Of a stretch of DNA of 64,000 bases, positions 1 through 42,558 are shown piece after piece. Location: IMG/VR virus record IMGVR_UViG_3300037067_011504, positions 1-64,000 of that record; one strand, given 5' to 3'. The translations under genes were made by a program, and so were the position numbers. The notes under the pieces were generated by a model, which was not told where the DNA came from, ran no database searches, and saw only the letters and a program-made list of their open reading frames with translations. The DNA comes from a virus. Taxonomy: Duplodnaviria; Caudoviricetes. How positions within the stretch are numbered: position 1 is the first letter of the stretch; each line of letters begins with the position of its first letter.

Positions 1-282
1 TTTGTCGCAGGAGATAAGTTGTTAAAATCAGAAGCAAGAAAAAGGTTTGAGAATATATTAAAAGTGATAGGTGTAATCATTGCCATTGGTGCTTTAGGAA
101 CTTCAACATATTTTGGTTTTCGTAATATTCAACAGGGAGCTACTATTATACAAAAACAGGACGATCAGAGTATTCCACTTGTGGTTAATCCGCGTGGTGA
201 GATTCTGGCATTGCCTGATTCAAGTCGTATTATATTCTTTAATAATGATTCAGCCAGGTACCTTATAAAAAAAGAGAGATGA
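1..282 (+). CDS. membrane protein of the lysis cassette, probably 5'-truncated
   Basis: Frame is open from base 1. One TM segment (ILKVIGVIIAIGALG). ATGA overlap with the amidase. Confidence 0.55.
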   Translation, partial: FVAGDKLLKSEARKRFENILKVIGVIIAIGALGTSTYFGFRNIQQGATIIQKQDDQSIPLVVNPRGEILALPDSSRIIFFNNDSARYLIKKER

Positions 283-719
283 TAAACATAATAGTACATT
301 GCAGCGATAGTAGCTGGGGTAATGCTTCAGTAATAACAAAATGGCATGTTGCCGAAAGGGGCTGGGAAACAATAGGATATCACTATGTCATTCTCAATGG
401 ATTACTATCACCTTACAAATTCCATTCTTATTTTGACGGTCATATTGAGACAGGCAGACCTCTTGATGATGATGCAGATATGGAGCTGGATGAAAAGGGA
501 GCGCACGCATTTGGCTATAATAATGCTGTTGGTATCTGTCTTATTGGATTATCCGGTACGTTTACAGATGCACAAATAAGGTCGCTGAATCATCTGATTA
601 ACAGGTTACGGGATCAGTTTGGAGAGATAAAAGTGATGCAACACTCGGACGTGGAACCAAAAAAACCGCAATGTGCAGGACTTACAAGATTGCAAATGAA
701 TGTTTTAAATAGGATATAA
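279..719 (+). CDS. endolysin, N-acetylmuramoyl-L-alanine amidase (T7-lysozyme-like Amidase_2)
   Basis: Zn-amidase motifs IIVHCS, IGYHYVI, GR, GAHAFGYN, GICLIG, F-T-x-AQ and HSD...C. Confidence 0.93.
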   Translation: MINIIVHCSDSSWGNASVITKWHVAERGWETIGYHYVILNGLLSPYKFHSYFDGHIETGRPLDDDADMELDEKGAHAFGYNNAVGICLIGLSGTFTDAQIRSLNHLINRLRDQFGEIKVMQHSDVEPKKPQCAGLTRLQMNVLNRI

Positions 720-4219: not shown

Positions 4220-4221
4220 TA

Positions 4222-16100: not shown

Positions 16101-19100
16101 CGATATCCGATATAGATGAAGTTATTCCTACTGATTCGGATATATATAATGCTATAATATCTATCATTGGTAACGATGAATTAAAGAAGATATTAGCGAG
16201 TGCTAAAGAGGCATCGGAACTTGGTAATGAGTATTCATTTAATGAAATATTTGTTGACAGGATAATAGCATCAATAAAACAGAAGGAGAAAGAGAAAAAG
16301 ACAGAAGGATCATTTAAGAGACTCATTGAATCGAAATATAATACAGGTACAACAGAGATAGAGAATCTTTATATGTCATACCAGACTAAGGCAACAAAGT
16401 CAGACAGGGAGATGATAAAGAAATATAAACGTAATCCTAAGAAGTTATTTAAGACAGTCATTGAATTTATTGTAGGATATAAAAGACTTAACACATCAGA
16501 GAAGTTTGCTATTGACAGGTATTATATCAATAATGACATTCTTGAATTCCGTGATAATATAAGTAATGAGACTGATATAGGATATACAGGGTTAACGAAA
16601 GAGCAGATACTATCATTTATCAATAAACATATACAGGTAGAGGCATTACAAGATATTATAAGTGATTTTGATAATGACTATGATATCAAGAAGCAGATAA
16701 AGGCAGAGAATGATGCATATATAGAGATGAAAAAAGCACCTACCAATCAGCAGGTGACAGTAATACGATCAGCAGTCAAATGGGCATTATCTCCACTTAA
16801 GAGAGTCTTTGAGACAGATAAGAAATATCATAGGTTTAAGACATGGTTATTTATCCGTGGCAATGCTGGTACAGGTAAGACACAATTTGTCATGAAGTTT
16901 TTAACACGTTGTCTTAGTGTTAAGAGTAATGAGATCTTTGCTGTTGCTCCTCATCAGAATGCTGCTGACATGATAGATAAGTCACTTGTAACAAGTAATA
17001 AAACAACACTTATAAAAGATCTTACAGTAGATAGTATATCTAATGATATTAAGTTTGTATTGATAGACGAAGTTGCTGCATTGACTAATCCGGAACTTAT
17101 AGCATTATCTAATACTCTACAGGCTATTAATGAAAAGAGACAGGTACCCTTTCGTGTGATAGCATTTGGTGATCCCAGCCAGGCATCGGCACAAGAGGAA
17201 GGAACAACAAAGTCATTTGATCCGGTAATCAACAGGAACATGACAGATGGGATAGAATATCTTGAGGTTACTGATCCTCTTACTGTACGTCATAGAAGTA
17301 TCATACCGGAGATAAACGAGTTACTGGACATATATGAAGGTAATGACAGGATCGTAGCAGGATTAACTGTCTATGCAAGTAATATGATAGGTTATGAGAG
17401 TATAGGTGTTCATGCAGGTACATTATCTGATATGGATACTCAACTTAAAGTACATAATAGTAATGGTAAGACAAAAGCTATTGTGGTATTCTCAAATAAG
17501 GAAAAGGCTAATATGATTAGTCGTCATCCTGATATGACAGATAATGTGTATACATATACAGAAGTAGCAGGGCAGGAGTTTGGCGAGGTATATGTTGATC
17601 TGTCACGTAACCAATTCAGGGATAACAGCGAATTTAATAAGGCGTTCTATACATCTATCAGTAGGTCCCAGCAATATATTTTCTTTAATGACAAAGGTGG
17701 TACATTTAATAACCAGGCTAAACAGTCTATAAAAGATAAGTATGACAAAGGAGATTATCAGAAAGAACAGAGTAAGATATTTGATGCACGGAAGAAAGAG
17801 TATGAGAAAAGACTTGAGTTTGATAATAATGTCTTATCTGGCATAAAGACAAGGAAGAAAGAAGAGAAAGTAGTTATAAAAAAAGGTACCGAGAGTGCTG
17901 AGGAAGATCAGTATATACCATCAGAGACAGAAGATGTAACAGGGAAGGAAGAACCGGACTCCAATGCTAACATGGAGAAGATTGAACAGAAGATAACCAG
18001 TTCGGCATTTAAGCATATCCTTGCATTTCCATCATACATAGGATCTAAGTTCATAAGAGCTAAAGGAAACACAAGTAAGTTACTTCCAAATAGTGAGGTT
18101 ATATATGTTAAGACTGAGGATAAGACAAATGAACATAAATACACTATTCACATCCTTGGTCAGTTATATGATAATAATAACCAGCCATTAAATAACAGGT
18201 ATGCTCATCTTGGGATAGTATCAGAGGAAGAATTAGCCAGTGATTTTGGTCAGAAATTGATGAGTAATTATGAAAAGAGTTTTAATAAAGAAGGAGAAGA
18301 ATTATTCAATACTATCACTATAGACAGGACAAGTGATGTAGTAAATCTTACAAATTCAAAAGGTGAAGAATATACTAAGACTATATTGGCTACCGGTAAG
18401 CTTGCTCTTGCACAGCCATTGACATATAAATATAGTGATAAGATAACATATAAAGGAGAAGGGTTTATAGATAAGGTTATTGATCTGTTTAGCCATAGGT
18501 ATCTTGATAGGGCAAAAGAAAAGGCATCATATAGTATAGTAATATATACTAATAATAATAAACCTGCAGAAAGATTTGCAGGTGTACCATATCTGATAAT
18601 AGAACCAGTATCTAAGAAGGGACTAAAAAAGGATAAACAATATATATCACTTAATCCACGTAATATATCATCAGGTAACAGGCATATAAAAGTATTAAGA
18701 TCATTCACAGAGGAGATAACTAAGCTTGAAGAATATGTTGGTAGTAAACTTGGTATATCTCCATTCAATGAGATGATAACAATGTTCTCACGTAACTTTC
18801 ATATTGAGGGTGATGATATAACCTTTGCAGGTAAGAACTTATTATTTGAAGAATATAATAATCTTGCAAAGAGAGGATTTGTTATACCTCTTGATAAGAA
18901 ACAATTTAATCATGTTGCAGAGACAATAGAACCTATCATCAAAGGATTATATTCTAAGGATAAGATCAAGAAGCGTATCAAGAATGAGGATGAGATGAAG
19001 AAACTCTATAAACTTGATGAGAATAATAAGTCAGATGATGCTATATATGAATTTAGACCGGCAACGAGAAAAGATAAAGAAGGTAATATAATAGACAAAG

Positions 19101-22100
19101 GATATGGATATGTATATAAGTTCTCATTAGCTAATAAAGAAGATAAGGGAACATATGAATATGAAGACGGATTAAAGATAGGAGGAGGAGAAGCACAGGT
19201 ATCACTTAATGTGATCGCAAAAGCAAATCACTATGTTAATAGTAAGTCAATACGTGTAAAGACAAAGAAGAGAAGGACTGAGACTGGTGCGTTAATGAAG
19301 ACTGCTACATATGTAACAACAGCCAAGTCATTACTTGATACTAATGAATATTCAGAAGGATATTATAGAATGGTAAGAGAATTATTTAAAGAAAATAATA
19401 TTAATATTTTTTATGATGTTACATTTAAAGATGGTAGTACAAGAAAAGTAGAAGATCGTTATATAACAGATGACAATATAGAGGCTGTAGAGAATTATCT
19501 TATTGATGAGGGGATAAAAACAAGAGAGGAACTTGATGAGTTAAAGAATTCATTTATAACTGAACCTATAACATCAGACAGGTTAAGAGATATATCTATG
19601 TTTGATGGTGATGAGCATCCTGAGTTACGTACACCATTAGAGAAAGATGGTAAATGGGGTATTAATACTCTTGGGGAAGATATAGAAGCTAATAAAGAGA
19701 TTCTTGAACAGTTACTACAGACTAATATTGAAGACATACTACAGACTGATATACATGTGGCTGTTGATGAGAATACTGCTATTGATAATGAACCTGAGAT
19801 AAGTGAGGAAAAGAAAGAGAAGGACCTTGGTAAGAAGTCTAAAGAAGTAGCATCACGTATATTTAAAGGTATACGTAAGAAACTATTATCCGGAATTCCG
19901 ATATTAGGAAAGAGAATATATGAGAGTGATATAATAAAGATCATACGTAAGAGTATCCCGGGAATAGGTAAGGAGGGGGTAGTCTTTTTGGAGAAGCAGA
20001 TGATAGACCGGTTAGCTGATGAAGAAGCATGGGGGTTATATGAGGATGGTATTATATATCTTGCAAAGAATGATGATGGTACCGTATATGAGAATATTGC
20101 CAGGCATGAAGTTTTCCATAAGATATATAATGAATATCTTACTGCTAAAGAGAGAAAAGAGATAGATGATATGGCTCAAAAAGAATTTAAAGATTATGAT
20201 AAGTTTTCATCTATTGAAGAACTACTTGCAGTAAAATATCATGAATGGAAAAGAGGAAGGTTAGAGAAGATAAGTGATTACTTTAAGAATCTTTTTAAAC
20301 GTATAATGGCATTTCTTGGTATCTATGAGAATAATATAGATAGCATCAATGATCTCTTTTATAAGATCGAGAATGGATTTGTTGACTATAGATATTCTAA
20401 AGGAGATAACACAAGACGGTTAATGAAAGATATAAAGAAAGAGTTTGGTACAATTAATAATTATATCGAGTCATGTGATTATGTCCTTGCCATGCTTGGG
20501 GAATATCGTGAGAATGGTATTAATGGTATACCATCAGAGAGAGGCGAGATAATAGATGAGATAATAAGAGATACTATTAACAGAATAGATACATTAAGAA
20601 AACTATTACGTACATCTGATGAACCGGCATACAGATATGAACTGGACAGATTATTGATGATAACAAAAAATATGAAGGATATCGTTAATGATTTATTTCC
20701 CGGGTTTAATAATTATGCTGATGGGTTATATCGTTCAACAATAGAAGAGGAGGAGTTAGAGTCGATAATCGATGAGATGGATGAAGACGAAGTGGTTAAT
20801 CTTAATAAACATATAATAGAGAATAGTAAACTTAATAGTGAAGTTGATATATCAGATGATATAAGGGAATTCATATCATATATAAAGAATGATGATGGTG
20901 AGTTTGTATCATGGAGATATGCATACATCAAACTATTAGGTATGCTTGAAGGGGTGAATCTTGAAGATGATAATTTTATTGATCAGATACTTGAGAAGTT
21001 CAAAGTAGCAGAGACAGATAAGGGAGTCAGTAGGCATGACATGAATACTAATGAGACGGCTGTCTTTAAGACACTACAGACACTTAAGAATATAATAGAT
21101 ACTAATACTTATAAAGCAGTAAGATTGCCTATGACAGTTAGGTTTGTATCAGGAGATACATTCTTCTATTCCAATAAGTCTGTAGAAGATGTAAATAGTA
21201 TCTCAGATGCAAGAGTATTATCCGGAGAAGTGAGTTATACAAAAAAGAATAAAGGAGAGTCATCTAAGGATTTCTTTAACAGGATAACAAAGTTATCAGA
21301 TATCTCTAAAGAGAAGATCATACAGATATATAAAAAGGAGCAGGCACGTCTCATACTTGCACGACTAACAAGTCATTTTAATTCACACAGGCAGAGAGAT
21401 CCTAAGATAGGTACAATCAAGTCAAGTTTTGGTGGTCATGAAGTGAAGTATTTTGATGCAAAAGGTAATGCAGTGACTACTGGTGTACGATCAGCGATAG
21501 CTTCCCAGATAGCCAATAAATTCCAGGAGAAGACAGATATTGAAAAGTTCATTAATGGTCCTTTAAGAAAATGGAACGATGCATATTATAAAGATCCGTT
21601 ATCATTCGTTAAAGATTTTTTTAGATATATAGGTTTATCTGAATATAGTGGATCGCTTAAGAATAAAAGCATGAGTATGATCATGGGTGATATAAATGCT
21701 TTCTTTACTACAGCATCACAGGAGATGAATAAGCCACAACAATCTGAAAAGGATGATGAGGTATCAGATACGATAGATAATAATGAGGTAGATAATACTG
21801 TAAGCATTGGTAAGATATTGTCAGATGAAGGATCCGGTATGCTTACAAGACTTACTGCAGCAGTGTCATTAATGGATAACCTATCACGTATATTATCTTC
21901 TCAGGATGGTAAAGGTCATAAGAGATATAATGCCGTGTTGAGCACACAGATACATAAAAAGATATTCGGTCTGATAAATAGTAGAAATATACATGGCGTA
22001 GGAGATAATAAGTTCATCAATATAAGATCTGTATTCAATAATAAATTTTTTCAAAAGAATATATTCATCAATGGATTGAATAAAATATATTCTATCATTG

Positions 22101-25100
22101 ATCATGATGGTACAACAAGGACATACAGAAATGATAACATAAGACCTATCATGTATGAATCGGAGAAGATAGATACATATAATCAAAGGACATTTGGTAT
22201 GGGATTCCTTGGGATGATATCGACATCAAGAAAGAATAATCCACGATATATACAGTTTATCTATCCTAATGAAAGACAGACACCATTTGGTGTTGACATA
22301 AATGTTCTTAAACCTGATAAGCTTATCAAAGCAATAGAAGCAACGATAACACAGATGGTAAACAGAAATGCAGAAAAAGAAAAAGATGTTGAGAATTATA
22401 ACTCTGATAGCGTAGTAGGTTTCGAAGTATTGCGTGAAGTAATAGGAGATAGAAAGATAAGTGAGATAAAGAAGAATGAGATACCAGGTATAGCAAAGAA
22501 GATATATAACATCCTTGATAAGAAGTCATATACATTAACTGATAATATCATTAAGAGTCGTATGCCATTAGATAGTTCATTACCAAAAAGAGATATGTTA
22601 AATAAACTTATCGATAAAGAACTTTATCCGGAATGGTCAACGAAAGTATTTCCTGTTAACAGAGGTGGTTATCTATCTCCTTCACAGACATGGGATCAGT
22701 TTGAAGCGATACATAAAGATAAAGGGATAACAAGAGAGAATGCATATAGCAAAGGATTTCAAAGAGAATATAATATAAAGAATGAACATCTCCAGCCATT
22801 GGTATCATTATTCTATATTAATAACTATGTTAATGGTTATCATTTTGCACAACTTGCTGCAGGTGATCTTGCATCATTTAAAGATAGTGATAATCTTTCT
22901 GACCGGTTATCATTAGCTTTTAGTCCTGGTAAGACAGGATTAGTGAATGATAAGTATGGTATGAGGGCAAAGGCAAGAATAGCAGTGATAGATGATCCTG
23001 TTAATGATATTAAGACTGTAGAGGATTTCCTTAAGACATTGCTTAAAGAAGAAGATGTTGCTGATGTGCTTAAGCTATTTGATCCGGAAGGATCTATGCC
23101 AGCTGACTCACAGGGATTCATGTTACCGGAAAGACGTGATGATATAAACTATGGGTTTGGTGATGATATGGGATCAGTACTTAAACCATCATATTATAGT
23201 TATGACATTGATGGTATCGCAAGAGCAATAAAATACTCGTCTGTAGTACTTACTGATGATCTTTGTGACAGACATCCGGCATTAAGCCTGTTACGTAATA
23301 AGATGCGTAAGAAAAATATTGATGAGGTGATATTCAATAGTGCTTTGAAGTTAGGTAATCCTATTGTTAAGAATGACTGGTATAAACTTACCGATGCTTC
23401 GCAAGATATTGATATAGATGACTTGTCAGTATTTGATATTGATAACAGGGATTTCCGTATACAGCTTGATCCTGCAGCTAAGTTAGATGCTAAGGTATCA
23501 CATCCTACACAACTATCATATATGTTACGTTTATATGGTATCAATGATGAGCAGGCAATAGGGATATATAACTCTATAAGTAAGATTATAGAGAGTAATC
23601 AAAAAACATTATCTGAATGGACAAGTGGTAAATCATTTGTTAATATACTCAAGAATTTTACTAATAAGAAAGGACAGGAGAATCTCTATGATCTTCTCAT
23701 GAGTGGTATAAATCATAATTTTCCTTCAATAGCTGACAGGTCATTGGTGCATTATATATCATCAGTATTTAAAAAAGCAGTTAAGGTTGTATATAATGGA
23801 TCAAAACTTGTTCTACAAACAGCAAAAGGTATTGAGAAGAATTATAAGGATATTAAACTACCTGATCATCTACAAAGAGAATTACAATATAAGAAAGATA
23901 AGAATGGTAGATTATATGCTGAATGTATTATACCGGAGGGCATGCTCCCAGCAGACATAGAGAATAAAATAAAAGAATATCTTAAGAAAGATTCTGAACC
24001 GGAAGATTTGTTTATGTTTCTTGGGCAGGAGTCAAAAGATATGATAGGATTTCGTATACCATCATCCGACTTACATAGTGCAGTAGCAATAAAGGTAGCA
24101 GGGTTCTATGACTCAAAAGGAACAAATATAATCGTTGCTCCTGAGATGTTGATACCAATAACAGGATCAGACTTTGATATAGATTCATTGTTTGTTATTA
24201 AGAGGTCATATGTAAAAGCATATAGTAAGACAATACCTGTAGGATATATAAAGAAAGGAGACAAGTATGTTTTTGATGGTGATGCATCATTTCTTAATAA
24301 CGTTGACAATAAGTTATTAAGAGAGGTAACAGAAGCATATTATACTAATGCTATCATGGAGGGATTCATTAATATCATCACTGATGAGAAAAACATCAAG
24401 AGGATGTTATCGCCTATATCATTCGTGAAGCTTAAAGGAGAAAAAGACAGGATGATAAAAGCTACACGTCAACAGAAGAAGAAAAGAGATATATCAGATA
24501 CCATACAGGCGCAGGAGATACATAATGATATATTTACAGGAGAGGTAGCTATTGGTATGTTCATGAACATGGTTAAAGGTTTCGCATTCCTTCACAAGGC
24601 AGAGAAAGGTGCTAAGATAACTCATCTTAAAGAGACAGCATCAGGGACAGATGATAATATAAAGAGTCCTGTTAGAATCTCATTCAATGATAGGTTATAT
24701 AATGAAATGACAGATATTGATGAAGCAGGAGAAGAAGTAGGATTCAGGTTTGATTCATTGGGTAACGCTGCACTAGATAACAGGAAACAACATATATTAT
24801 CATTTCTTAATATAAGCAGGGAGACATTAAGACCATACTCTATATTGGTTATGCATGGTGTAAAGACAGAGACGATAAATAATTTTATATCGCAACCCAT
24901 ATTAAGAAGTCTGTCTAAGTATGGTTATGGTGAAGGTAACAGGATAAAGAAGAGTATAGAGGAATTAGTAACACAGAATGAGATTGATACTGTAGAGACA
25001 TTCTATGATACAGAGATGGAGAAATATCTTAAGTATACTCCGGAGGATATAGATGTTATTCTTTCGAAAGATAAGATAACGCCAACAGAGAGGAAGTTTC

Positions 25101-28100
25101 TAATATATCAGGCAAGGGTGTATGATATGTATACTGATCTTAATAAGATAGGTAATGACATAGCATCATTATCAAAGATAACAAATGTGAATCGTAAGTT
25201 TCCAAATTCTGTAGATGCCATGGAGACTATATTGTCATCTGCCAAGAAGATAATGGGTATACCTGAGAGTGGCAAGATAACAGATACACCTAATGACGAT
25301 AAGAGTGACTTTCCTTATTACGTATCTAATTTCTGGACAGCAAACCCTCATGTATATAGTGCTCTTAAGTCAATGCAATGGACAGTAGATAATATTAACC
25401 AGGAATATATATCATATGGTAAACAGTTCAGGTCAATAGCTAATAAGGTATATAACAATACTAAGCTTAAGCTTGATCAACAGTTAGACATAAGTAAGAA
25501 GAAGATACGTGATGAATTCACCAAGTTTCTTATGTCAACTCTTATCGACAGGAAGGATATAGATCCGGTAACTATAACTGTAAGAGGAGAACAGATAGTA
25601 CTTACCGACATAGCTGCATTTAACAGGTCATTCATCGATCTTATCAAACAGGCTAAGAAAGATGATTACATGAAGAAGATAATGTCACAGAATAAGAGTA
25701 AAGAAGAGAGATATAATGGTAATATATTTCTTAATACATTATCATTTGCATCTGATGCTGAGACAGGACAAGAAAAGATAATATTTCATGGTCCGGCAAC
25801 GATGGACATAGGTGATCTTAACTTATTTCGTGAGTCATTTGAGGAGATGAATAATTTCGATTATGTAAAGAAGAATGGTGTATATGAACAGGTAAAGAAA
25901 GATACGGATGGTTATTCACAGTTCCAGAAGATGTTTGTCACATATGCCATGCTTAACTATGGTATGAACTTTGGTCTTCGTAACTATTCAATAATACTCC
26001 CTGGTGATATATATAAAGAGGAGAGTGATAAACTTGTGGCATTGATGGCAGATATAAATAATCTTAAGACAAATGAGATAAATAATGTAGTTAATGTTTT
26101 CGAGGCACAACTGATAAGTAACTTTCCTGAGAGTGCTCAATCAGAAAGGATAACTATAAAACCACATGCTAAGACTATCGTTGATCCAAAGACGAAGAAA
26201 TGGATGGACATAAAATATGGTAAGAATCCTGATGGGATATATTATGACAGGTGGTTTGAGAGTGAGATAGTACGTACATGGCCCAAGTATCATGTTGAAT
26301 CATTTGGTAAGAAGTTCAAGATATTTAAGCGTACATCACCAGAGGAAGGATTAGCAGTATATTATACAAGGATAGGGACGAAGAACAGGATACCTATATA
26401 TAGCATACATTCATTACAAGACATGAAAGAGTATGATGAAGATGAGGCATTCAATCAGAAGATACTTCATGTCAAAGGGAGGGTTACTAAGAGTGGGTTA
26501 TTTGAAAGTAAGGCATATGATCTTACTATGGGAGATAAGATAAGTATAACAGATTATAGTGATGCAGCTAAGATATATCCTGTTACTTATGAAGTCATTG
26601 AGAAGAAGGCATCTGGTATATATAAGGTTAAGCCGTCTGTTCCTATACGTGATAAAGGATATTATGATAAACCAGATGGTGAAGCACAAAGATTATATGA
26701 TACAATAACAAAACGACTAAGGAGTAAAGAAGGACCATTTAGAGCTGGTAAGATGGGAAGGATATACTTCAGGAAGAACCTTGAAGGAAAGGGTAGGTTA
26801 TTACGTCAACAACTGAATAAGGAGATATTTGCAGGATATAATGTAATTAAGGAGAGGGTGACAGCATCCGGATGGCAGGTATATATTGATATGGATACAA
26901 TAAAAGAATATTTGTTTGGTGAACAACTTAATCTATTTGATAAAGGATATAAAGAATCAGAAAGTAAAAGAGATATTGTAAGTATATTATTTAATCAGGC
27001 AGTAGACAATAATATATATTGGAACGAATTCCAGGAATCATTACAAAGCATAGATGAGAATATTGAAGATAAGATAAATGAACTAAGTGCATTATATGAT
27101 GGTAAGACAGTGGATCAGCTTCTTAATGATATAGAAGGTGATGAAGATACTTCTTCATTCGAGAAGATGATAATACGATGGATGAGACCATATCTTAAGA
27201 ATCTTAAACCGGAATTTGTTGGTAACAGGAAATTAAAAGATGGTAGACTAGGAGAGTTCTTATCTACCGGACAGTTCTCATTAGATTATAATCAGTTAGC
27301 AGAGAGAGATAAGACACAATATGATATAGATAGGATCATACTTCATGAGTTGATGCATGGATTGACTATCATACAGTTTAAAGGAGATAGTAAGTTTAGA
27401 GCAGAGTTGAAAGAAAAGATCAGACTGCTTAAGAAAGGTAATCCAGCATTGGCAGAGGAATATTCTTATGCTTTCTCAGATGAAGAAGAGTTTATATCAG
27501 AACTATTTACTAATGAGAAGTTTTTTAACGCATTAAACTATATTAAGATACCTTTAAAAGAGAAGAATATATTAAGGATAATAGGTGAATGGATAATGTC
27601 ATGGTTTAAGAAAGGTGCTGATATACGTACCGGTGACAGATTGATGTCATGGATAAAGAATAATATAACTCCATTAGAATATATTAAAACAGAAGAGATA
27701 GAAATATTATCGAGAGGATATGAAGATGAAGAAATGAATAAGATAATAGACCAGGGATTGAAATATATCGTACCAATAAATGATAAAGGAGAGGAAGAAG
27801 ATCATTATATAGATATAGATGATAAAGGGAAAATATTTAAAAGAGTAACAGATATATATAATGGCTGGGCATCATATTTTCGTAAAAAAGGAGACAGGAA
27901 AACATTTGGTGAGAGAGAGGCTGATTCGGTATGGAAGTATACAGAGAAGAATATTCCAAAAACAATAGATGGTAAGGAAGAGACATACGATCAATACAAA
28001 GAACGTATGGACAAGGTGATGATTGAAGCATCTACCAGAGCAAGAATAATCCACTTAATCGATCAACGGTTTATTGATAGATTATTTAATAATAGTCATA

Positions 28101-31100
28101 ATCAAGGACTGATAAATAGCAAGATACAATTACTTGCATATAAAGATTATAATATTATTGATAGCGAAGGAAAAACATATACTATAAACATTAATGTTGA
28201 TCCGGAAAAGATGAACTGGTATGAAGAGAATATTGAGAAGATATATAAGATTCATGGAATAAACATATTTGATAACTGTAGTGCCGATCTGAAAGATATA
28301 TTAGCATCAGAAGTAACAGTAGCATCAGAGGAGTTAGGTATAGCAGGTACGATAGATAAGCTTATAAAGCATGCTGATGGTACATATTCTATAAAAGATA
28401 TCAATACAGGATCTAACTTCGATAATACATTATCTAATAGATTGTTTAATTATGGTGATCAAAATAGACAGTTGATAGATAAGCCAAGGGATAGGAAGAA
28501 GTTACAGATAATGACATATGCCTTCATGTTGAAAGCGAATAATCCTGATATCAAGTTCCGTAATCTTGATGTGATGTGGATACCTAATAGTTTCCAGGCT
28601 ACTCATTTTGATAATATGCGTAAGGTAGAGGTTGATGACTTTCTTAACATGATGAAAGCGTTTTTACAGGATAAGGTAGCACTTAAAGAAGTAGGGATAG
28701 ATGAAGAAGTATATGAAACATTGGTAAGTAAATCAAAAGATATATTTAACGTAACTCATTATACTCATGGATATACTCTTAAAGAGGAAGGATTAGATAT
28801 TGTTGATGAGACAATAATAGCCGAGAAGCTTGCTGATGATCTTATAGTTAGTGGTGATCCGCCTCATATAGTGGCAGAGAAGAAGATTAATGAGTTAAGA
28901 AAGATAATAGGTAAAGCTCCGGTTATAATTAATATAGGGAAGAATAAGTATGAGAATCTATCTAAGACTGATCGTGTAAGAGCAAGGATGCTTACTTCAC
29001 AGATACTTCAACTGATAAAGGATCCTCAGACTACATTATATATGAATCCTGAAAATGATGTATCACTAGTCACTCAATGGATAGGTAACTACTATGATAT
29101 AAATAATCCTTATGTTAAGGTATGGAAACAGTTTAGGAATAAACAGGAAGATATTGCTAAGAAAAAACATTATGATTTGTTTAATGAGTTTCAATCATAT
29201 CTTAAGCCGGTGACAGATGAATATTATGCAAAACATCCCACATTAAGTAAGGGATGGCTTAATAACCTTAACTATAAAAAACTATATTCATTTGCATATA
29301 TGGAGTTTGATAATAACGGATCAACACAAGAGAGGTTAATAACAGAGAACGACACAGAGAAATGGAACGTATTAACAGATAAACAAAGAAGACTATTATC
29401 ATTTATAAATAAGATATATGCATCATACTTTGGTAAGGGATCATATACTGATGAGGTAGCTACATATGTACCAGAACATGGACAATTGAATCCTATATCA
29501 GTGATAGATCTATTTAATAAGGGTACTGATGATGTACGTAAGTTTAGATATATCCCAGGGTTCTTTCCTAAGATACCAAAAGAAGATTCTGAACATATAT
29601 TTGACTTTGGAGAAGGCAGTTATCTTAAAGGCTTATTCAGTAAAGGATATTTCAAACAAGCAGCACATGAGAGCTTCACATTCTATCTTGAGAACCAGTA
29701 TGAAGGCAGACAACATGCTAATATGGTATTGCCATTAAAATATATGGGTAGTTTCCAGATAGATAATAAGAGAGATTATTCACGTAATATCGAGTTTCAG
29801 TTTGACAGATTCATAAAGAGTATAGAATATAAGAAAGCTATGGATCCTGTATACGCATTTGGAGAGAGTGTAAGAGGTTATCTTGATCTGCAGAATGATA
29901 AAGATCAACCTATGTATACAAACACTGTTAAGATGCTTGAGATGAAACTTACACAAGATGTACTTGGCAGAACGATAAGGAAGAGATTGGTACGTAAACC
30001 TATTAAATGGTTTGGTAAGGAATATGAAGATAGAGAGGTTAAGGCTGATGCAGTATTTATCCTTATGAGAAGATGGGTATCGGCTACCACCATGTGGCTT
30101 AAACCATTTACGGGTACAGCGAATGGTGTACATGCTAACTACCTTAAACATAAAGATGGATTAAAAGGTACTATAGCAAATAAGATATTTGGGATAGATA
30201 ATGATGCAATTGATTATACTCTTTCTGATAGTCTTGCTGCAGATAAAGTATATTTTACTGAACATATAGTAAATGCCATGACTGGTAAGATAAGACAAGA
30301 TAAGACATGGTTATTACTTAAGAAACTTCATTACCTACCTGATAACTTTGATTTCATGTCATCTGAGAAGTATTTATTATCATTACGTAACAGGATGATA
30401 TCAGAGAGTACGATGTATACTTTTCATAGGATACCTGAAGAGTTTGTTGCTATGACAACAATGATAGCACAACTTAAACATCTTAAACATCCTACTATTA
30501 AGAAGAATGGTAAGAAAGTCAGCTTATGGGATCTATATGAAGTAGAGAAAGATGCAAATGGTATATATGACATAGTATGGAGAGGTGGATCGAGAGGTAA
30601 GATAAAGAAAGGATCAGGAAAAGAAGTGACATACGAAGATATGAAAGAGTTGCTTCCAAAAGAGATAGTTAAGTTAAAACGTGTTTATGAACGTATGCAA
30701 GGTGGTTACAGAAAAGAAGAGGCAGCAGCATTGGAAGTATATGTTCTCGGAAAAGTATTCATACAGCTGAAGAAGTACGCACCACGTCTATTACTTAATG
30801 CGTTTCAGAGTAAACGATGGGAAGATGATCTTGGTATGCTTAAAGCAACAGGAGAGAGACATGAAGAAGAAGATGTATACGAATGGATGGAAAGACTTAA
30901 TGAAGGACGATTCAGGATACTTGGTAAGTTCTTATTCTCTACTATGATGATGGGAAGTGGGAACAGGGAATATAAATGGAGTAACATGCCACCGGAATTC
31001 AAACAACATATCATTGATGCATGTCTCACATTGGGTATATGGGCAACATCATATACAGCATATCTTAATATGTTTGGTGATGATAAGGATGATGATACAC

Positions 31101-31444
31101 TTAAACGTATGTGGAAGATGTATCTATTACAGAACCTTAGTCAACAGTATAATCCTATTGAGTTACTTAAATTAACTAAACAGATGTTAGAACCTGTAGC
31201 ACTTACTAAGGCTATTGATACGTTTACAGCTATGGGGACACTTATGGCAGCAGGATTCGATGCAGGAGTACATGGTGATGCAGAGTTGTTATTTACTGAT
31301 AAGGGTGATCTTAAGGGATGGAATAATCTCAGAAAAGCATTGCCAGGATTAGCAAGTTATACGGATGCTATCAAGAGGATAGAAAACTTCGGTGATATAG
31401 ATGTACAGTTTAGTCGTGTAGCTTCATTTGGGAAATATAGATAA
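13130..31444 (+). CDS. giant virion RNA polymerase polyprotein (6104 aa)
   Basis: GFRIPS...GSDFDIDSL catalytic loop (DFDID at 24170-24184) as in crAss-like vRNAPs. Also an SF1 helicase Walker A GNAGTGKT (16859), HEVFH (20105), HELMH (27344), a PD-(D/E)xK-like domain (~28300-28560) and N-terminal hydrophobic helices. Confidence 0.92.
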   Translation: MGKKQGTKTFADMMEGIEQPISANNVPEQYTPFISGNEPTKKNPLEGFNMNFPDPYRSKQYVDQGGKYFIGTPQTAFTSSVKGENQPWPSKLLNGLIGNTIAVSTKVNTAVGEIGGGLFDLLTMPIPGVTEERKKQYGTATPHLFENFYTEFIKHVENDIVKDKLFPVYGGQAYNTDNLISQMGDMKLWSSDLADAVAFTVAAYTPVAALSKVSTLMKLGKNASKIFQTIATSGWNTVQEASLEAQQGLQDIRETLSADMFKSTYAGLSKEQQAEVNQKAGSHAANIFNTNLAILAGPNLIQARFFIGPVKSSKSRLMKGVLSGKVTKESIGVAKSVLKQSGLGIVSEGAWEEGSQQAVQDYEKNRALGMEYDNRLGGYAYQWLNNFYTTEGQKSMFLGAIVGGGMGARSGIVDARADRKFVEEYSNKYQDALKNRFPLYDNVLPNNIKHFLKSYNKETTDKDGNKAIGKTVLNERGEIEPDVYKMGKLFAGSMQQKSLFSNLAMANLNMDEVHEKFFVNEGLLQMFYKYMSDPIFDDSNIAFDTMMEREGIKALSEDEELSKLGFDYNDLSVQLHKMKTEWDNIHKKLYSRKDLDNTDQENEFKRNVVKGILYERMKLHVLDDIEQIVEDKDQLDPIRDDARKYIDMYEDKSERNKLFEEYTKETSARIDLIKQLKDQYVKDPASVDTKKLEYLIEEESMINGSPVTNDRFSLIQRPEDKTGEFGLRNQYYLNIGMDAIAGARLQSAINNVQDSNGTLKEAVDILTKEKYDVRKEDIQAVKNLIPIERKRVESNRYTSDMFNADISALYSKQAGGEMTGEEVRIASQELEKQLEESDIIVNDMEDAIDRLNAIDPKSDGKGLLNYMDGMPRHITDDYSFMRKVADVPINEADDLIKTVRANPDSYDKVRKVEELIERLNDRKNIYKKTELKQRLDNKAFKGYIKSIDDILKIIKKEILPVAEKNYTEKQNTDSRHQVNRNHKRFEGLGMTISDIDEVIPTDSDIYNAIISIIGNDELKKILASAKEASELGNEYSFNEIFVDRIIASIKQKEKEKKTEGSFKRLIESKYNTGTTEIENLYMSYQTKATKSDREMIKKYKRNPKKLFKTVIEFIVGYKRLNTSEKFAIDRYYINNDILEFRDNISNETDIGYTGLTKEQILSFINKHIQVEALQDIISDFDNDYDIKKQIKAENDAYIEMKKAPTNQQVTVIRSAVKWALSPLKRVFETDKKYHRFKTWLFIRGNAGTGKTQFVMKFLTRCLSVKSNEIFAVAPHQNAADMIDKSLVTSNKTTLIKDLTVDSISNDIKFVLIDEVAALTNPELIALSNTLQAINEKRQVPFRVIAFGDPSQASAQEEGTTKSFDPVINRNMTDGIEYLEVTDPLTVRHRSIIPEINELLDIYEGNDRIVAGLTVYASNMIGYESIGVHAGTLSDMDTQLKVHNSNGKTKAIVVFSNKEKANMISRHPDMTDNVYTYTEVAGQEFGEVYVDLSRNQFRDNSEFNKAFYTSISRSQQYIFFNDKGGTFNNQAKQSIKDKYDKGDYQKEQSKIFDARKKEYEKRLEFDNNVLSGIKTRKKEEKVVIKKGTESAEEDQYIPSETEDVTGKEEPDSNANMEKIEQKITSSAFKHILAFPSYIGSKFIRAKGNTSKLLPNSEVIYVKTEDKTNEHKYTIHILGQLYDNNNQPLNNRYAHLGIVSEEELASDFGQKLMSNYEKSFNKEGEELFNTITIDRTSDVVNLTNSKGEEYTKTILATGKLALAQPLTYKYSDKITYKGEGFIDKVIDLFSHRYLDRAKEKASYSIVIYTNNNKPAERFAGVPYLIIEPVSKKGLKKDKQYISLNPRNISSGNRHIKVLRSFTEEITKLEEYVGSKLGISPFNEMITMFSRNFHIEGDDITFAGKNLLFEEYNNLAKRGFVIPLDKKQFNHVAETIEPIIKGLYSKDKIKKRIKNEDEMKKLYKLDENNKSDDAIYEFRPATRKDKEGNIIDKGYGYVYKFSLANKEDKGTYEYEDGLKIGGGEAQVSLNVIAKANHYVNSKSIRVKTKKRRTETGALMKTATYVTTAKSLLDTNEYSEGYYRMVRELFKENNINIFYDVTFKDGSTRKVEDRYITDDNIEAVENYLIDEGIKTREELDELKNSFITEPITSDRLRDISMFDGDEHPELRTPLEKDGKWGINTLGEDIEANKEILEQLLQTNIEDILQTDIHVAVDENTAIDNEPEISEEKKEKDLGKKSKEVASRIFKGIRKKLLSGIPILGKRIYESDIIKIIRKSIPGIGKEGVVFLEKQMIDRLADEEAWGLYEDGIIYLAKNDDGTVYENIARHEVFHKIYNEYLTAKERKEIDDMAQKEFKDYDKFSSIEELLAVKYHEWKRGRLEKISDYFKNLFKRIMAFLGIYENNIDSINDLFYKIENGFVDYRYSKGDNTRRLMKDIKKEFGTINNYIESCDYVLAMLGEYRENGINGIPSERGEIIDEIIRDTINRIDTLRKLLRTSDEPAYRYELDRLLMITKNMKDIVNDLFPGFNNYADGLYRSTIEEEELESIIDEMDEDEVVNLNKHIIENSKLNSEVDISDDIREFISYIKNDDGEFVSWRYAYIKLLGMLEGVNLEDDNFIDQILEKFKVAETDKGVSRHDMNTNETAVFKTLQTLKNIIDTNTYKAVRLPMTVRFVSGDTFFYSNKSVEDVNSISDARVLSGEVSYTKKNKGESSKDFFNRITKLSDISKEKIIQIYKKEQARLILARLTSHFNSHRQRDPKIGTIKSSFGGHEVKYFDAKGNAVTTGVRSAIASQIANKFQEKTDIEKFINGPLRKWNDAYYKDPLSFVKDFFRYIGLSEYSGSLKNKSMSMIMGDINAFFTTASQEMNKPQQSEKDDEVSDTIDNNEVDNTVSIGKILSDEGSGMLTRLTAAVSLMDNLSRILSSQDGKGHKRYNAVLSTQIHKKIFGLINSRNIHGVGDNKFINIRSVFNNKFFQKNIFINGLNKIYSIIDHDGTTRTYRNDNIRPIMYESEKIDTYNQRTFGMGFLGMISTSRKNNPRYIQFIYPNERQTPFGVDINVLKPDKLIKAIEATITQMVNRNAEKEKDVENYNSDSVVGFEVLREVIGDRKISEIKKNEIPGIAKKIYNILDKKSYTLTDNIIKSRMPLDSSLPKRDMLNKLIDKELYPEWSTKVFPVNRGGYLSPSQTWDQFEAIHKDKGITRENAYSKGFQREYNIKNEHLQPLVSLFYINNYVNGYHFAQLAAGDLASFKDSDNLSDRLSLAFSPGKTGLVNDKYGMRAKARIAVIDDPVNDIKTVEDFLKTLLKEEDVADVLKLFDPEGSMPADSQGFMLPERRDDINYGFGDDMGSVLKPSYYSYDIDGIARAIKYSSVVLTDDLCDRHPALSLLRNKMRKKNIDEVIFNSALKLGNPIVKNDWYKLTDASQDIDIDDLSVFDIDNRDFRIQLDPAAKLDAKVSHPTQLSYMLRLYGINDEQAIGIYNSISKIIESNQKTLSEWTSGKSFVNILKNFTNKKGQENLYDLLMSGINHNFPSIADRSLVHYISSVFKKAVKVVYNGSKLVLQTAKGIEKNYKDIKLPDHLQRELQYKKDKNGRLYAECIIPEGMLPADIENKIKEYLKKDSEPEDLFMFLGQESKDMIGFRIPSSDLHSAVAIKVAGFYDSKGTNIIVAPEMLIPITGSDFDIDSLFVIKRSYVKAYSKTIPVGYIKKGDKYVFDGDASFLNNVDNKLLREVTEAYYTNAIMEGFINIITDEKNIKRMLSPISFVKLKGEKDRMIKATRQQKKKRDISDTIQAQEIHNDIFTGEVAIGMFMNMVKGFAFLHKAEKGAKITHLKETASGTDDNIKSPVRISFNDRLYNEMTDIDEAGEEVGFRFDSLGNAALDNRKQHILSFLNISRETLRPYSILVMHGVKTETINNFISQPILRSLSKYGYGEGNRIKKSIEELVTQNEIDTVETFYDTEMEKYLKYTPEDIDVILSKDKITPTERKFLIYQARVYDMYTDLNKIGNDIASLSKITNVNRKFPNSVDAMETILSSAKKIMGIPESGKITDTPNDDKSDFPYYVSNFWTANPHVYSALKSMQWTVDNINQEYISYGKQFRSIANKVYNNTKLKLDQQLDISKKKIRDEFTKFLMSTLIDRKDIDPVTITVRGEQIVLTDIAAFNRSFIDLIKQAKKDDYMKKIMSQNKSKEERYNGNIFLNTLSFASDAETGQEKIIFHGPATMDIGDLNLFRESFEEMNNFDYVKKNGVYEQVKKDTDGYSQFQKMFVTYAMLNYGMNFGLRNYSIILPGDIYKEESDKLVALMADINNLKTNEINNVVNVFEAQLISNFPESAQSERITIKPHAKTIVDPKTKKWMDIKYGKNPDGIYYDRWFESEIVRTWPKYHVESFGKKFKIFKRTSPEEGLAVYYTRIGTKNRIPIYSIHSLQDMKEYDEDEAFNQKILHVKGRVTKSGLFESKAYDLTMGDKISITDYSDAAKIYPVTYEVIEKKASGIYKVKPSVPIRDKGYYDKPDGEAQRLYDTITKRLRSKEGPFRAGKMGRIYFRKNLEGKGRLLRQQLNKEIFAGYNVIKERVTASGWQVYIDMDTIKEYLFGEQLNLFDKGYKESESKRDIVSILFNQAVDNNIYWNEFQESLQSIDENIEDKINELSALYDGKTVDQLLNDIEGDEDTSSFEKMIIRWMRPYLKNLKPEFVGNRKLKDGRLGEFLSTGQFSLDYNQLAERDKTQYDIDRIILHELMHGLTIIQFKGDSKFRAELKEKIRLLKKGNPALAEEYSYAFSDEEEFISELFTNEKFFNALNYIKIPLKEKNILRIIGEWIMSWFKKGADIRTGDRLMSWIKNNITPLEYIKTEEIEILSRGYEDEEMNKIIDQGLKYIVPINDKGEEEDHYIDIDDKGKIFKRVTDIYNGWASYFRKKGDRKTFGEREADSVWKYTEKNIPKTIDGKEETYDQYKERMDKVMIEASTRARIIHLIDQRFIDRLFNNSHNQGLINSKIQLLAYKDYNIIDSEGKTYTININVDPEKMNWYEENIEKIYKIHGINIFDNCSADLKDILASEVTVASEELGIAGTIDKLIKHADGTYSIKDINTGSNFDNTLSNRLFNYGDQNRQLIDKPRDRKKLQIMTYAFMLKANNPDIKFRNLDVMWIPNSFQATHFDNMRKVEVDDFLNMMKAFLQDKVALKEVGIDEEVYETLVSKSKDIFNVTHYTHGYTLKEEGLDIVDETIIAEKLADDLIVSGDPPHIVAEKKINELRKIIGKAPVIINIGKNKYENLSKTDRVRARMLTSQILQLIKDPQTTLYMNPENDVSLVTQWIGNYYDINNPYVKVWKQFRNKQEDIAKKKHYDLFNEFQSYLKPVTDEYYAKHPTLSKGWLNNLNYKKLYSFAYMEFDNNGSTQERLITENDTEKWNVLTDKQRRLLSFINKIYASYFGKGSYTDEVATYVPEHGQLNPISVIDLFNKGTDDVRKFRYIPGFFPKIPKEDSEHIFDFGEGSYLKGLFSKGYFKQAAHESFTFYLENQYEGRQHANMVLPLKYMGSFQIDNKRDYSRNIEFQFDRFIKSIEYKKAMDPVYAFGESVRGYLDLQNDKDQPMYTNTVKMLEMKLTQDVLGRTIRKRLVRKPIKWFGKEYEDREVKADAVFILMRRWVSATTMWLKPFTGTANGVHANYLKHKDGLKGTIANKIFGIDNDAIDYTLSDSLAADKVYFTEHIVNAMTGKIRQDKTWLLLKKLHYLPDNFDFMSSEKYLLSLRNRMISESTMYTFHRIPEEFVAMTTMIAQLKHLKHPTIKKNGKKVSLWDLYEVEKDANGIYDIVWRGGSRGKIKKGSGKEVTYEDMKELLPKEIVKLKRVYERMQGGYRKEEAAALEVYVLGKVFIQLKKYAPRLLLNAFQSKRWEDDLGMLKATGERHEEEDVYEWMERLNEGRFRILGKFLFSTMMMGSGNREYKWSNMPPEFKQHIIDACLTLGIWATSYTAYLNMFGDDKDDDTLKRMWKMYLLQNLSQQYNPIELLKLTKQMLEPVALTKAIDTFTAMGTLMAAGFDAGVHGDAELLFTDKGDLKGWNNLRKALPGLASYTDAIKRIENFGDIDVQFSRVASFGKYR

Positions 31445-38956: not shown

Positions 38957-40438
38957 TTAAATATATTTCATTAGTTTTACTGTTAAAGCACAATATCTGG
39001 TCCAAGTAGGAGTAAATAAATCTGTACTGTTATAATCTAAATACCATGCATAACCGTTTCCAAATCCTGTATCATCGGATAACCAAAAATCACCATATTT
39101 ATGTATGCTGTCGAATCCTTGATCATCACCAGTATCACAAAATCTATTACCGGCACCTATACCTTTAAATCCATATGTATCTGTAGCACCAAAATTGGGT
39201 GTTAACCAATGACCTAATCCTATCTCTTTTAATTTTCCTCCTGCAATACTCCAATCTCCAATATTATCTATTAGATTTATAATATCAGTAGAAGTAGGTA
39301 CCTTCCATCCAACTTCTCTTGTAGAACCTCTTTTAAGATATGGAAATCCATGTACATTATTAAGTGCATAATGATTATAAAGGGCACCATAGGTATTTTT
39401 ATAGATTATATTATTATCATACCAACAGTATGCACCTGTAATATCTGTGATAAATCCATCTACTTCGAGATTATAACAAAGATATGCAGCACTTGTTACA
39501 TGTCCTGCCTGCCATACTATTTCACTAGTGTTTGTTTCTCCATAACCTATATCTGTCCCGGTCCATGATATCTCTACATCATCTACATTACTCCACGACT
39601 TAGATATACTTACATCTGTTAGTGCTGCTTCGTAATAAAGTGCTCCTGATCCATCAATATAGAATATCAATCCTCCTGATGGACCAGTATCTCTTAATGA
39701 ATATGCTCCGATCTCTGCAATGAAGTATCTAAAGGCACGAACATGACAAGTAGTTGATTTAAGTGTTTCTGTTTGTGTACCAGTAGAGAAATCTTGCATC
39801 CATGCTTCTGTAGCTGATGATTCACTCGATGACCAATATGTCCCGGCAGCAAAATCACCTACTCCATGAAGATGAAGATTAGTATACATCTCATTTAATT
39901 CATCTTTTGAAGGCAACAACATATCAGTTGCTCCTCTTAATATAATATTAGATATTGCAGTACCATCTGCATAGTGTGTTGCTTTAAAATTTTCTACTAT
40001 CCACCGTTGATTACCCATGTCAATAGTTGTATAGACATTTCCGTCATAATCAGTAAGTATACCTTCTTCTTCTATTGGTACTGGTACAGTATCGACAGGA
40101 AATTCAAGTTCTATACATTTTGTTATGTCAGTAGTAGTAACTATTATTACTCTTCCTCTATTATCATCTGCTATCTGTCTATAATTTTTAGAGATATAAT
40201 ATCCCTGATCAAATGCAAGTTTATTAATATCTATGTCATAAGTATCAAATTGTATATTATAATTTACATTTCCGTGATATTGTTCATAATTACGTAGATG
40301 ACTTCTATATTGAGTATAGAACATCAATGCAAAATATTGATCTTCTGTCAATGTTGATTCATCATCAAGAGTAGCAGTTTCGCTAACCAATGTTATTATA
40401 CCATTGGTTATCTGTGTTACGTAAGCACTTGTTGTCAT
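38957..40438 (-). CDS. FISUMP (Fib_succ_major) protein with an inserted DUF1566/Lcl-like domain
   Basis: FISUMP motifs DYDGNVY...QRWxxEN, YGALYN, GWKVP, AGGKLKE, GF...AGNR; DUF1566-like motifs LPSKDEL...YWSSSE...VRAFR. Start placed at MTTSAY. Confidence 0.8.
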   Translation of the reverse strand: MTTSAYVTQITNGIITLVSETATLDDESTLTEDQYFALMFYTQYRSHLRNYEQYHGNVNYNIQFDTYDIDINKLAFDQGYYISKNYRQIADDNRGRVIIVTTTDITKCIELEFPVDTVPVPIEEEGILTDYDGNVYTTIDMGNQRWIVENFKATHYADGTAISNIILRGATDMLLPSKDELNEMYTNLHLHGVGDFAAGTYWSSSESSATEAWMQDFSTGTQTETLKSTTCHVRAFRYFIAEIGAYSLRDTGPSGGLIFYIDGSGALYYEAALTDVSISKSWSNVDDVEISWTGTDIGYGETNTSEIVWQAGHVTSAAYLCYNLEVDGFITDITGAYCWYDNNIIYKNTYGALYNHYALNNVHGFPYLKRGSTREVGWKVPTSTDIINLIDNIGDWSIAGGKLKEIGLGHWLTPNFGATDTYGFKGIGAGNRFCDTGDDQGFDSIHKYGDFWLSDDTGFGNGYAWYLDYNSTDLFTPTWTRYCALTVKLMKYI

Positions 40439-40803
40439 AGTAATTATTTTTAAAGTAAATATGCATGTGAAAATAGACAATTATTATTTTGCATACAATT
40501 TAAACAATTTCCGTGAGGTAACAATATTGTACTATCTTCAAACTCAATGCAGAATATAGGATTTTTATTAAACATACTACTTCTGTTACGTGTATATTCA
40601 TCTAATTCATCCTTTGTCATAGGACGAATAGCTTTTATTTTTCTACCGTTTATCTCCATATATTTTATTTTTCTTAACAATTTCTTCAATAGTTAACATT
40701 AAACAATTTATATTCATCCATAATTTTCTTATATGCCAATATGATAGATTGTTTGTTTCAATAAGCTTTATCGATTTATTAAGCATGGTTATTAAATCAT
40801 CTT

Positions 40804-41904: not shown

Positions 41905-42558
41905 TTATAATATACCCGAATCAGTAAATGAATAGTATTTATTTTCTCCAATAATTATATGGTCAAGTAACTGAATATCTAGTATACCACCGGCTTCTTT
42001 TATTTTCTGAGTTATTTTGGTATCAGATTCACTTGGATTAAGGTTTCCTGATGGGTGATTATGGCAAACTATGATACCGGAAGCGAGAGATTCTATTGCT
42101 TTTTTCATTACCATTCTTACATCTGTGACCGTTCCGCTAATGCCTCCCTGACTCAGTTTCATTCTGCTGATTACTTTATTTGACCTGTTTAAGAATAATA
42201 TCCAGAATTCTTCATGCTGAAGATCTGAGAGAAGCGGTTGAAAAATGTCAGCAACATCTTTTGAACAACTAATCTTCATTTTATCCGGTATATCTTGTAA
42301 TTTCTTTCTATTAGAATATTCATTAGTTGCTATTATTCTTGTAGCTTGCTGATGAGATAACCCATTATTTATCATATCAAAGTAACTTAACTTTGCTATT
42401 GAATTAAAATTATTATCACATTTTTGTAATAATGTATGAGCTTTTTCAAGTGGATCTTTTCCTGAGATAACAATCGATAATGTTTCAGCATCAGAAATAT
42501 AATGCGAACCTTTATCAACTATCTTATAATTCGGATCATCAAACTTATTTAATTTCAT
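41905..42558 (-). CDS. radC: RadC family JAB/MPN protein
   Basis: SDAETLSI N-terminus; EEFWILFLN, GG...T, HNHPSG...PSESD, LLDHIIIG. Confidence 0.93.
   Translation of the reverse strand: MKLNKFDDPNYKIVDKGSHYISDAETLSIVISGKDPLEKAHTLLQKCDNNFNSIAKLSYFDMINNGLSHQQATRIIATNEYSNRKKLQDIPDKMKISCSKDVADIFQPLLSDLQHEEFWILFLNRSNKVISRMKLSQGGISGTVTDVRMVMKKAIESLASGIIVCHNHPSGNLNPSESDTKITQKIKEAGGILDIQLLDHIIIGENKYYSFTDSGIL

Follow-up and report, generated by a model that had tools for sequence, protein, structure and literature searches.

A circularly permuted DUF1566/Lcl_C domain predicted to be nested in the FISUMP domain of a phage protein

Introduction

The C-terminal domain of the Legionella pneumophila protein Lcl (Lcl-CTD; PF07603, structure 8q4e) has been described as C-type-lectin-like and binds sulphated glycosaminoglycans (PMC11162425). 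The family to which it belongs, DUF1566/Lcl_C, has been treated together with Fib_succ_major (FISUMP; PF09603, TIGR02145) as a pair of overlapping, homologous lectin-fold motifs, and both are known ligand-binding target domains of diversity-generating retroelements, or DGRs (PMC5758913; for DGR target types see also PMC4159848).

Here we analyse a gene, P0001, in which sequences of both families occur in one reading frame. The gene lies in a 64,000-nt stretch of DNA, called the window below, that comprises positions 1 to 64,000 of the viral record IMGVR_UViG_3300037067_011504 (Caudoviricetes); the record as a whole has 93,765 bases (93.8 kb) and is 96% complete. Very probably the gene product consists of three parts: a lineage-specific N-terminal domain, a split FISUMP domain and, nested within the latter, a permuted DUF1566/Lcl_C domain.

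Results

Gene and genomic setting

The ORF list gives an open frame on the minus strand between positions 38957 and 40480 of the window, within which the translation of P0001 (493 aa) occupies 38960-40438. The ATG at 40438 was taken as the start, in preference to an upstream TTG at 40480, because the relatives P0002 and P0050 also begin with MTT. P0001 has no signal peptide or signal-peptide-like start.

The genome comprises a plus-strand arm, with the virion structural genes and a 6104-aa ORF, and a minus-strand arm in which a topoisomerase-like gene and a DnaB-type helicase gene are found amid many small ORFs. According to the ORF list, the 6104-aa sequence is a single reading frame (13130-31444, plus strand) that takes up 18 kb of the structural arm. 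P0001 maps to the minus-strand arm, the replication/early arm, outside the tail module; it is surrounded by small ORFs and homing-endonuclease genes, and its closest relative, P0002, is placed likewise. Close to the lectin gene, the contigs bearing the closest relative (L171, at 4135-4680 and 8225-8962, and L172) have homing-endonuclease-like genes of the NUMOD4 and GIY-YIG/NUMOD types. Between the ORFs that this locus and the window share, the two differ in gene content. The arm of the window that carries the lectin gene also has, 1.4 kb upstream of it, a 217-aa ORF (41905-42558, minus strand) whose translation shows a RadC/JAB-like C-terminal sequence with an HNHPSG motif.

Residues 1-127 of P0001 (40058..40438, minus strand) make up an N-terminal domain that is not assigned to any family and is shared only with P0002 (77% identity) and P0050 (about 54-55%). 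A search of 5.8 billion cluster representatives returned no relatives of this domain beyond these two proteins, no second copy of it is present elsewhere in the genome, and a structure search of the Atlas gave no usable match (TM < 0.5). The domain differs from the Fn3-type spacers that most homologues have.

The outer FISUMP domain

The remainder of the protein begins with the N-terminal strands of a FISUMP domain (segment A; residues 128-169, 39932..40057, minus strand), which end in ...ADGTAISNIILRG. This assignment rests on positions 1-50 of the Pfam profile, on a segment HMM and on the alignment with plain FISUMP domains. The C-terminal part of the same domain (segment D; residues 329-493, 38960..39454, minus strand) starts with FITDITGAYCWYDN; it corresponds to profile positions 33-168 and is 45% identical to the plain FISUMP domain of P0050. 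The motif KATHYADGTAI falls at residues 152-162 and GAYCWYDN at residues 335-342.

With the Pfam profile Fib_succ_major (PF09603), P0001 scores 56.2 bits against a family cut-off of 33.9, and with TIGR02145 it scores 52.1 against 41.65. The PF09603 match is not contiguous: profile positions 1-50 align at residues ~139-185 (39884-40024 of the window when the DNA is searched) and positions 33-168 at residues 333-476 (39011-39442), the two stretches being parted by an insert. Plain FISUMP domains run from ...PNIxxDG straight into WxxDxTGAYCWY, and in the alignment the insert of P0001 sits exactly between the two.

The module formed by residues 125-493 was modelled with AlphaFold2 (pLDDT 91.9, pTM 0.75). 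At this pTM the relative orientation of the outer and nested domains is only moderately defined. The best structural neighbour of the module is TvpA (2y3c; Z 8.8, 160 residues aligned), followed by CarF (5aoh, 8.3), PvdO (5hha, 8.1), an FGE paralogue (1y4j, 7.2), Mtd (6.2) and TaqVP (5.7). Many canonical lectin domains match at Z values of about 5; overall, the Z values are middling. Matches of the FGE/DGR type cover the model from residue 3 to residue 369 with ~160 residues aligned, which is consistent with both FISUMP pieces, A and D, being aligned together in the model. The outer domain is thus predicted to adopt a compact C-type lectin fold of the FGE/DGR type. Foldseek comparison of the whole module with the PDB gave nothing at E <= 0.001 (best match 8q4e; E 4e-3, rmsd 12), as expected because the query is nested and permuted.

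The presence of the DGR proteins TvpA, Mtd and TaqVP among these neighbours raises the question whether P0001 is itself the target of a DGR, its odd order reflecting a variable region; both of its domain families are known target types (PMC5758913, PMC4159848). Such an origin is highly improbable. The 96%-complete 93.8-kb genome yields no RVT_1 match, nor does any stretch of the gene of more than ~20 nt recur in it as a potential template repeat, and the differences between P0001 and P0002 are spread evenly along their length rather than gathered in one block. Because reverse transcriptase and template repeat are missing and the divergence is even, we do not consider P0001 to be a DGR target in the sequenced genome.

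The insert is a permuted DUF1566/Lcl_C domain

By alignment with plain FISUMP domains, the insert comprises 159 residues (170-328; 39455-39931 of the window). The original prediction, made from the letters of the window, had described a FISUMP domain interrupted by about 160 aa at 39450-39940, within a few bases of these limits. Within the insert, the first half (segment B; residues 170-244, 39707..39931, minus strand) reads ATDMLLPSKDEL...YWSSSE...VRAFRYF and corresponds to the C-terminal half of a canonical DUF1566/Lcl_C domain. The second half (segment C; residues 245-328, 39455..39706, minus strand) reads YSLRDTGPSGGLIFY...EAA...WSN...GETNTSEIVWQAGHVTSAAYLCYNLEVDG and corresponds to the N-terminal half of canonical DUF1566. 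Accordingly ordered along P0001 are LPSKDEL (residue 175), YWSS (201), VRAFR (233) and GPSGG-LIFY (252), and then the GAYCWY of FISUMP (336).

The Pfam profile Lcl_C (PF07603) matches residues 157-237 to its positions 31-117 only, at 32.7 bits on the protein, just below the cut-off of 34.9, and at 27.9 bits on the genome. That the profile sees no more of the insert than this, and below cut-off, is explained by the halves being swapped. Segment C alone gives no Pfam Lcl_C match; most of it lies outside the Pfam model, or it matches too weakly.

A custom profile was built from 20 canonical-order DUF1566 units, taken only from arrays that start with a GPxGG half or end with a VRAxR half, so that the register of the units is unambiguous. 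The native insert matches this profile in two abutting and swapped pieces: profile positions 74-144 align with insert positions 3-73 (79.7 bits), and profile positions 2-75 with insert positions 89-163 (53.6 bits). When the halves of the insert are put back in canonical order, a single match spans positions 2-144 of the 144 (139.9 bits). The E values (1e-42 for the native and 5.5e-45 for the re-ordered insert) are far beyond chance. Homology thus covers the whole DUF1566 domain, including its N-terminal GPxGG-IFY strands and its helices.

Comparison with Lcl-CTD gave a similar picture. By sequence, residues 171-239 of the query align with residues 99-165 of the 8q4e chain, that is, with its C-terminal end, and a second, sub-threshold piece aligns residues 254-287 with chain residues 50-83. 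By structure, a sequential aligner superimposes residues 1-74 of the insert model on chain residues 329-401 (Z 5.5, rmsd 3.4, 72 residues, 39% identity). The canonical order of elements seen in 8q4e (S1-S4, H2, H3, S5-S9) is not kept: by sequence the halves are swapped, and by structure only half of the model can be placed on 8q4e. A Foldseek comparison of the insert with BFVD likewise returned only half-domain matches to phage DUF1566 proteins, none of them at E <= 0.001. Half-length matches of this kind, to 8q4e and in BFVD, are the behaviour expected of a permutant.

Modelled alone with AlphaFold2 from 69 aligned sequences, the insert is predicted with a pLDDT of 93.0 and a pTM of 0.89, its two halves forming one compact domain. 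Judged by sequence, the insert is a circular permutant of DUF1566, since both halves are homologous to the family, they are swapped, and their breakpoints meet. These results bear out the original prediction in its main points, namely that the DUF1566 halves are swapped, as seen in the motif order and in the custom-profile pieces (74-144, then 2-75); that the new ends lie at the G/DW loop, the breakpoints falling at the G/(Y,F,W)SDW loop; and that a lectin-like domain is nested within a FISUMP domain, which is otherwise complete. It had anticipated that the re-ordered insert would give one full-length match, as it does, and had named AlphaFold as a check, which the compact model passes. Neither of the findings that it named as refuting was encountered: in its native order the insert does not align collinearly with members of the family, and nothing in the model suggests separate folding of its halves.

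Origin, gain and loss of the insert

Canonical units read ...LCxDLxxNG-YSDWFLPSKDEL. In the nested modules, segment A ends in ...DG and is followed by (F/Y)SDWFLPS, and segment C ends in ...LCDDLxxxG and is followed by the W/F-xxD-xTGAYC of FISUMP. These junction sequences make the insert equivalent to a single, exact period of a tandem array, cut out of register at a G/aromatic boundary and set at a G/W boundary of FISUMP. The linker between VRAxR and GPxGG measures 19 residues in P0001 and 18 in the tandem arrays. Junctions and linker alike would fit an origin by excision from a tandem array; the event is an old one and not specific to P0001. Thus, the earlier suggestion that the protein was created by permutation, for example by excision from a tandem repeat, agrees with the junctions and with the 18-19-residue linker, but the creation did not take place in P0001 or its phage, the nested form being found in at least 116 clusters.

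At the DNA level, both insert junctions (39932-39934 and 39455-39457) have a GGA (Gly) codon, after which ACn GAT AT (encoding T-D-M and T-D-I) comes within a few codons. This GGA...ACnGATAT repeat could be the remnant of a recombination site or could reflect a shared protein motif; it is too short to separate the two.

The relative P0050 (329 aa) matches residues 1-165 of P0001 at 55% identity and residues 330-491 at 45%, with nothing corresponding to residues 166-329. Its contig, the window and the contig of P0002 share a downstream ORF, placing the three genes in the same neighbourhood. In a tree built from concatenated segments A and D, P0001, P0002 and P0050 form a clade with a support of 0.98. 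Further well-supported pairs that differ only by the insert are P0005/P0085 and P0113/P0082. Parsimony required ~27 state changes over 246 units, against a mean of 81 when the labels were shuffled; a Fitch count made after collapsing weakly supported nodes was left aside as not meaningful. Because a syntenic orthologue, P0050, has the N-terminal domain together with a plain, insert-free FISUMP domain, the insert acts like a cassette that close relatives have gained or lost. Most near neighbours of the P0001 lineage on the A+D tree carry the insert, and gain versus loss is not polarised there.

A different parsing of the protein would make it two chimeric tandem domains, A+B and C+D, produced by recombination between homologous lectin-fold domains. 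The families are indeed homologous and overlapping (PMC5758913), and phrog_4245 aligns to residues 143-240, across the A/B junction. Nevertheless, this parsing is very improbable. P0050 joins A directly to D, proteins made of B followed by C alone exist (see below), and the C-terminal part of FISUMP has helices of its own, which those of segment C would duplicate. The models point the same way: modelled by itself, the insert comes out as a single compact body (pTM 0.89), and the whole-module structural matches, with ~160 residues aligned over 3..369, span A plus D.

Distribution of the nested and free forms

A word-indexed protein search returned 2361 matches; among the 120 matches listed, at least 30 are collinear with P0001 over residues 128-493, at 34-48% identity, P0002 being 72% identical in an end-to-end alignment. 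When 1.84 billion cluster representatives were searched exhaustively, 678 matched at E <= 1e-30. Four segment profiles (A, FISUMP N-terminal; B, DUF1566 C-terminal half; C, DUF1566 N-terminal half; D, FISUMP C-terminal) were run over 226 retrieved proteins, from phages and bacteria. The architecture A(BC)nD was found in 116 of them, with n equal to 1, 2 or, in P0121, 4, so that other proteins with the same architecture, as sought by the original prediction, are plentiful. The others include plain AD arrays, proteins with B-C at the C-terminus (e.g. P0058, P0112, P0130, P0133), proteins with canonical C-B units at the C-terminus (P0135, P0145, P0178), and D-B-C and D-A-B-C-D arrangements. On IMG/VR contigs there are also proteins of ~160-185 residues that consist of the permuted unit alone, starting a few residues before DWFLPS and stopping two to four residues past AAKLCDDL. 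Since stand-alone, C-terminal and nested forms are all found, the permuted DUF1566 unit is an independent and widespread module, occurring alone, C-terminally, in tandem or nested, and P0001 is one among many proteins that harbour it.

In P0121, P0003/P0004, P0039/P0073, P0136 and P0197, the same FISUMP loop holds two or four B-C units. In several two-unit inserts that were checked (e.g. P0039/P0073), the internal C halves have a length of only ~68 aa, and the SAAKLC helix is absent from them. For this reason the two-unit inserts admit either of two readings: successive permuted units, or canonical units wrapped by one split unit.

The same survey bears on whether the order seen in P0001 could be an artefact of assembly or gene calling, through a chimeric contig or a frameshift fusing two genes. 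The genome is a metagenomic viral record, where such errors are conceivable. P0001 is, however, a single open frame, its 72%-identical relative P0002 has the same order in two independent metagenomes, and the order is common to more than 100 independent clusters. An artefact is thus hardly credible.

In other phages the homologous nested-module genes adjoin virion structural, tail-fibre, beta-helix and crAss muzzle genes, and one nested protein, P0026, is encoded on a clearly cellular contig of 335 kb. Among the best 80 loci in reference prokaryote genomes, we found plain FISUMP and canonical DUF1566 and no nested module. None was found at E <= 1e-40 among 301 sampled Bacteroidota genomes, each searched with limited scoring. 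A tblastn search of deposited phage genomes gave one weak partial match only.

Discussion

The arrangement can be accounted for if a second, complete lectin-fold domain, the circular permutant of DUF1566/Lcl_C, is lodged in the loop that follows the first FISUMP strands. In the canonical domain the point of the cut (...NG/YSDWFLPS...) is one continuous loop, so the two ends of the permutant would be adjacent. Adjacent ends would in turn allow splicing into a surface loop that leaves the host domain undisturbed. The permuted unit is, on this reading, an autonomous, mobile module that nests at one FISUMP site.

With regard to function, we infer that the protein would present two separate ligand-binding surfaces, probably glycan-binding, on one rigid body. 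The N-terminal domain may serve as an anchor or adaptor, and the whole protein would most likely be used by the phage for cell-surface or receptor recognition. A putative binding function is suggested by the lectin fold and by the homologues that lie beside tail-fibre and crAss muzzle genes. On balance we favour P0001 being a two-headed lectin-like binding protein involved in host-surface recognition. Its own gene is not in the tail module of its phage, where a receptor-binding or tail-fibre gene would be looked for, while homologues elsewhere are in tail modules.

The genomic setting leaves some room for another role. P0001 might be an intracellular early protein whose lectin-fold scaffolds bind a host macromolecule, in host takeover or counter-defence, rather than acting in the virion or at the cell surface. 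Consistent with this, the gene shares the minus-strand arm with the topoisomerase-like and DnaB genes and many small ORFs, the closest relative has the same setting, the signal peptide is absent, and the N-terminal domain does not resemble the Fn3-type spacers of most homologues. We regard an intracellular role as a serious but less likely alternative, as homologous modules in other phages adjoin tail-fibre, virion structural and crAss muzzle genes and the literature consulted records no such role for these families.

Returning to host-surface recognition, a broader scenario can be put forward tentatively, as something possible though somewhat short of probable. DUF1566 would exist in two interconvertible circular permutants, of which the permuted one would act as a plug-in cassette: at one fixed FISUMP loop, phages and bacteria would add it, raise its copy number (n = 1, 2 or 4) or take it out. 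This would allow a modular change of binding specificity in receptor-binding proteins without a DGR. In the phage studied here, a two-headed lectin would have been recruited, together with a new N-terminal domain, to a role in the early/replication arm.

While the component lectin-fold families are known, neither the permuted form of DUF1566 nor its placement within FISUMP appears to have been described: in the full-text literature on the families, on lectin-domain permutation and on PF26707, we found no description of either. PF26707, which precomputed tables give for some homologues, might already model part of the permuted unit. As Pfam Lcl_C sees half of the permutant, often below cut-off, many phage proteins of the receptor-binding type are mis-segmented by current domain models, and a dedicated model of the permutant would correct their annotation. 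The family is also a clear case from nature of a domain permuted through duplication and then inserted into a loop, for which the two permutants, orthologues lacking the insert and inserts of several copies can all still be compared. It further suggests a cassette route to diversified host recognition by phages, of relevance to host-range prediction for crAss-like and other phages of Bacteroidota-type hosts.

Among described systems, Lcl-CTD is homologous to both halves of the insert (39% identity over 72 structurally aligned residues) and has, like the insert, a compact C-type-lectin-like fold without disulfides. It differs in that the halves of the insert are swapped, the cut lying between helix H2 and the DW-LPS strand. 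The trimer is a feature of Lcl, whereas the insert is known here as a sequence and a single-chain model. As to FISUMP, the outer domain of P0001 scores above both curated cut-offs and can be aligned over its full length with the plain FISUMP domains of its relatives. Unlike typical members of the family, it is broken by a 159-residue domain after the first strands and has no lipoprotein signal, and it ends in ...CALTVKLMKYI (38960-38990 of the window) instead of the near-invariant SVRCVRD (VRCVRD) of the family. The ...CALTVKLMKYI ending is common to P0001, P0002 and P0050.

The DGR proteins TvpA, Mtd and TaqVP, of a type often met among phage receptor-binding proteins, resemble the outer domain most closely in structure within that class (Z 8.8, 6.2 and 5.7) and share with it a ligand-binding scaffold; the genome of P0001 differs from theirs in having neither reverse transcriptase nor template repeat nor variable region. 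Finally, the locus resembles the textbook cases of permutation by duplication and of domain-in-loop nesting, in that the insert would be one tandem period out of register with its ends adjacent, as loop insertion requires. It departs from them in that free modules of both kinds, permuted and canonical, still exist within the same protein families, and in that presence and absence of the nested cassette recur at one site.
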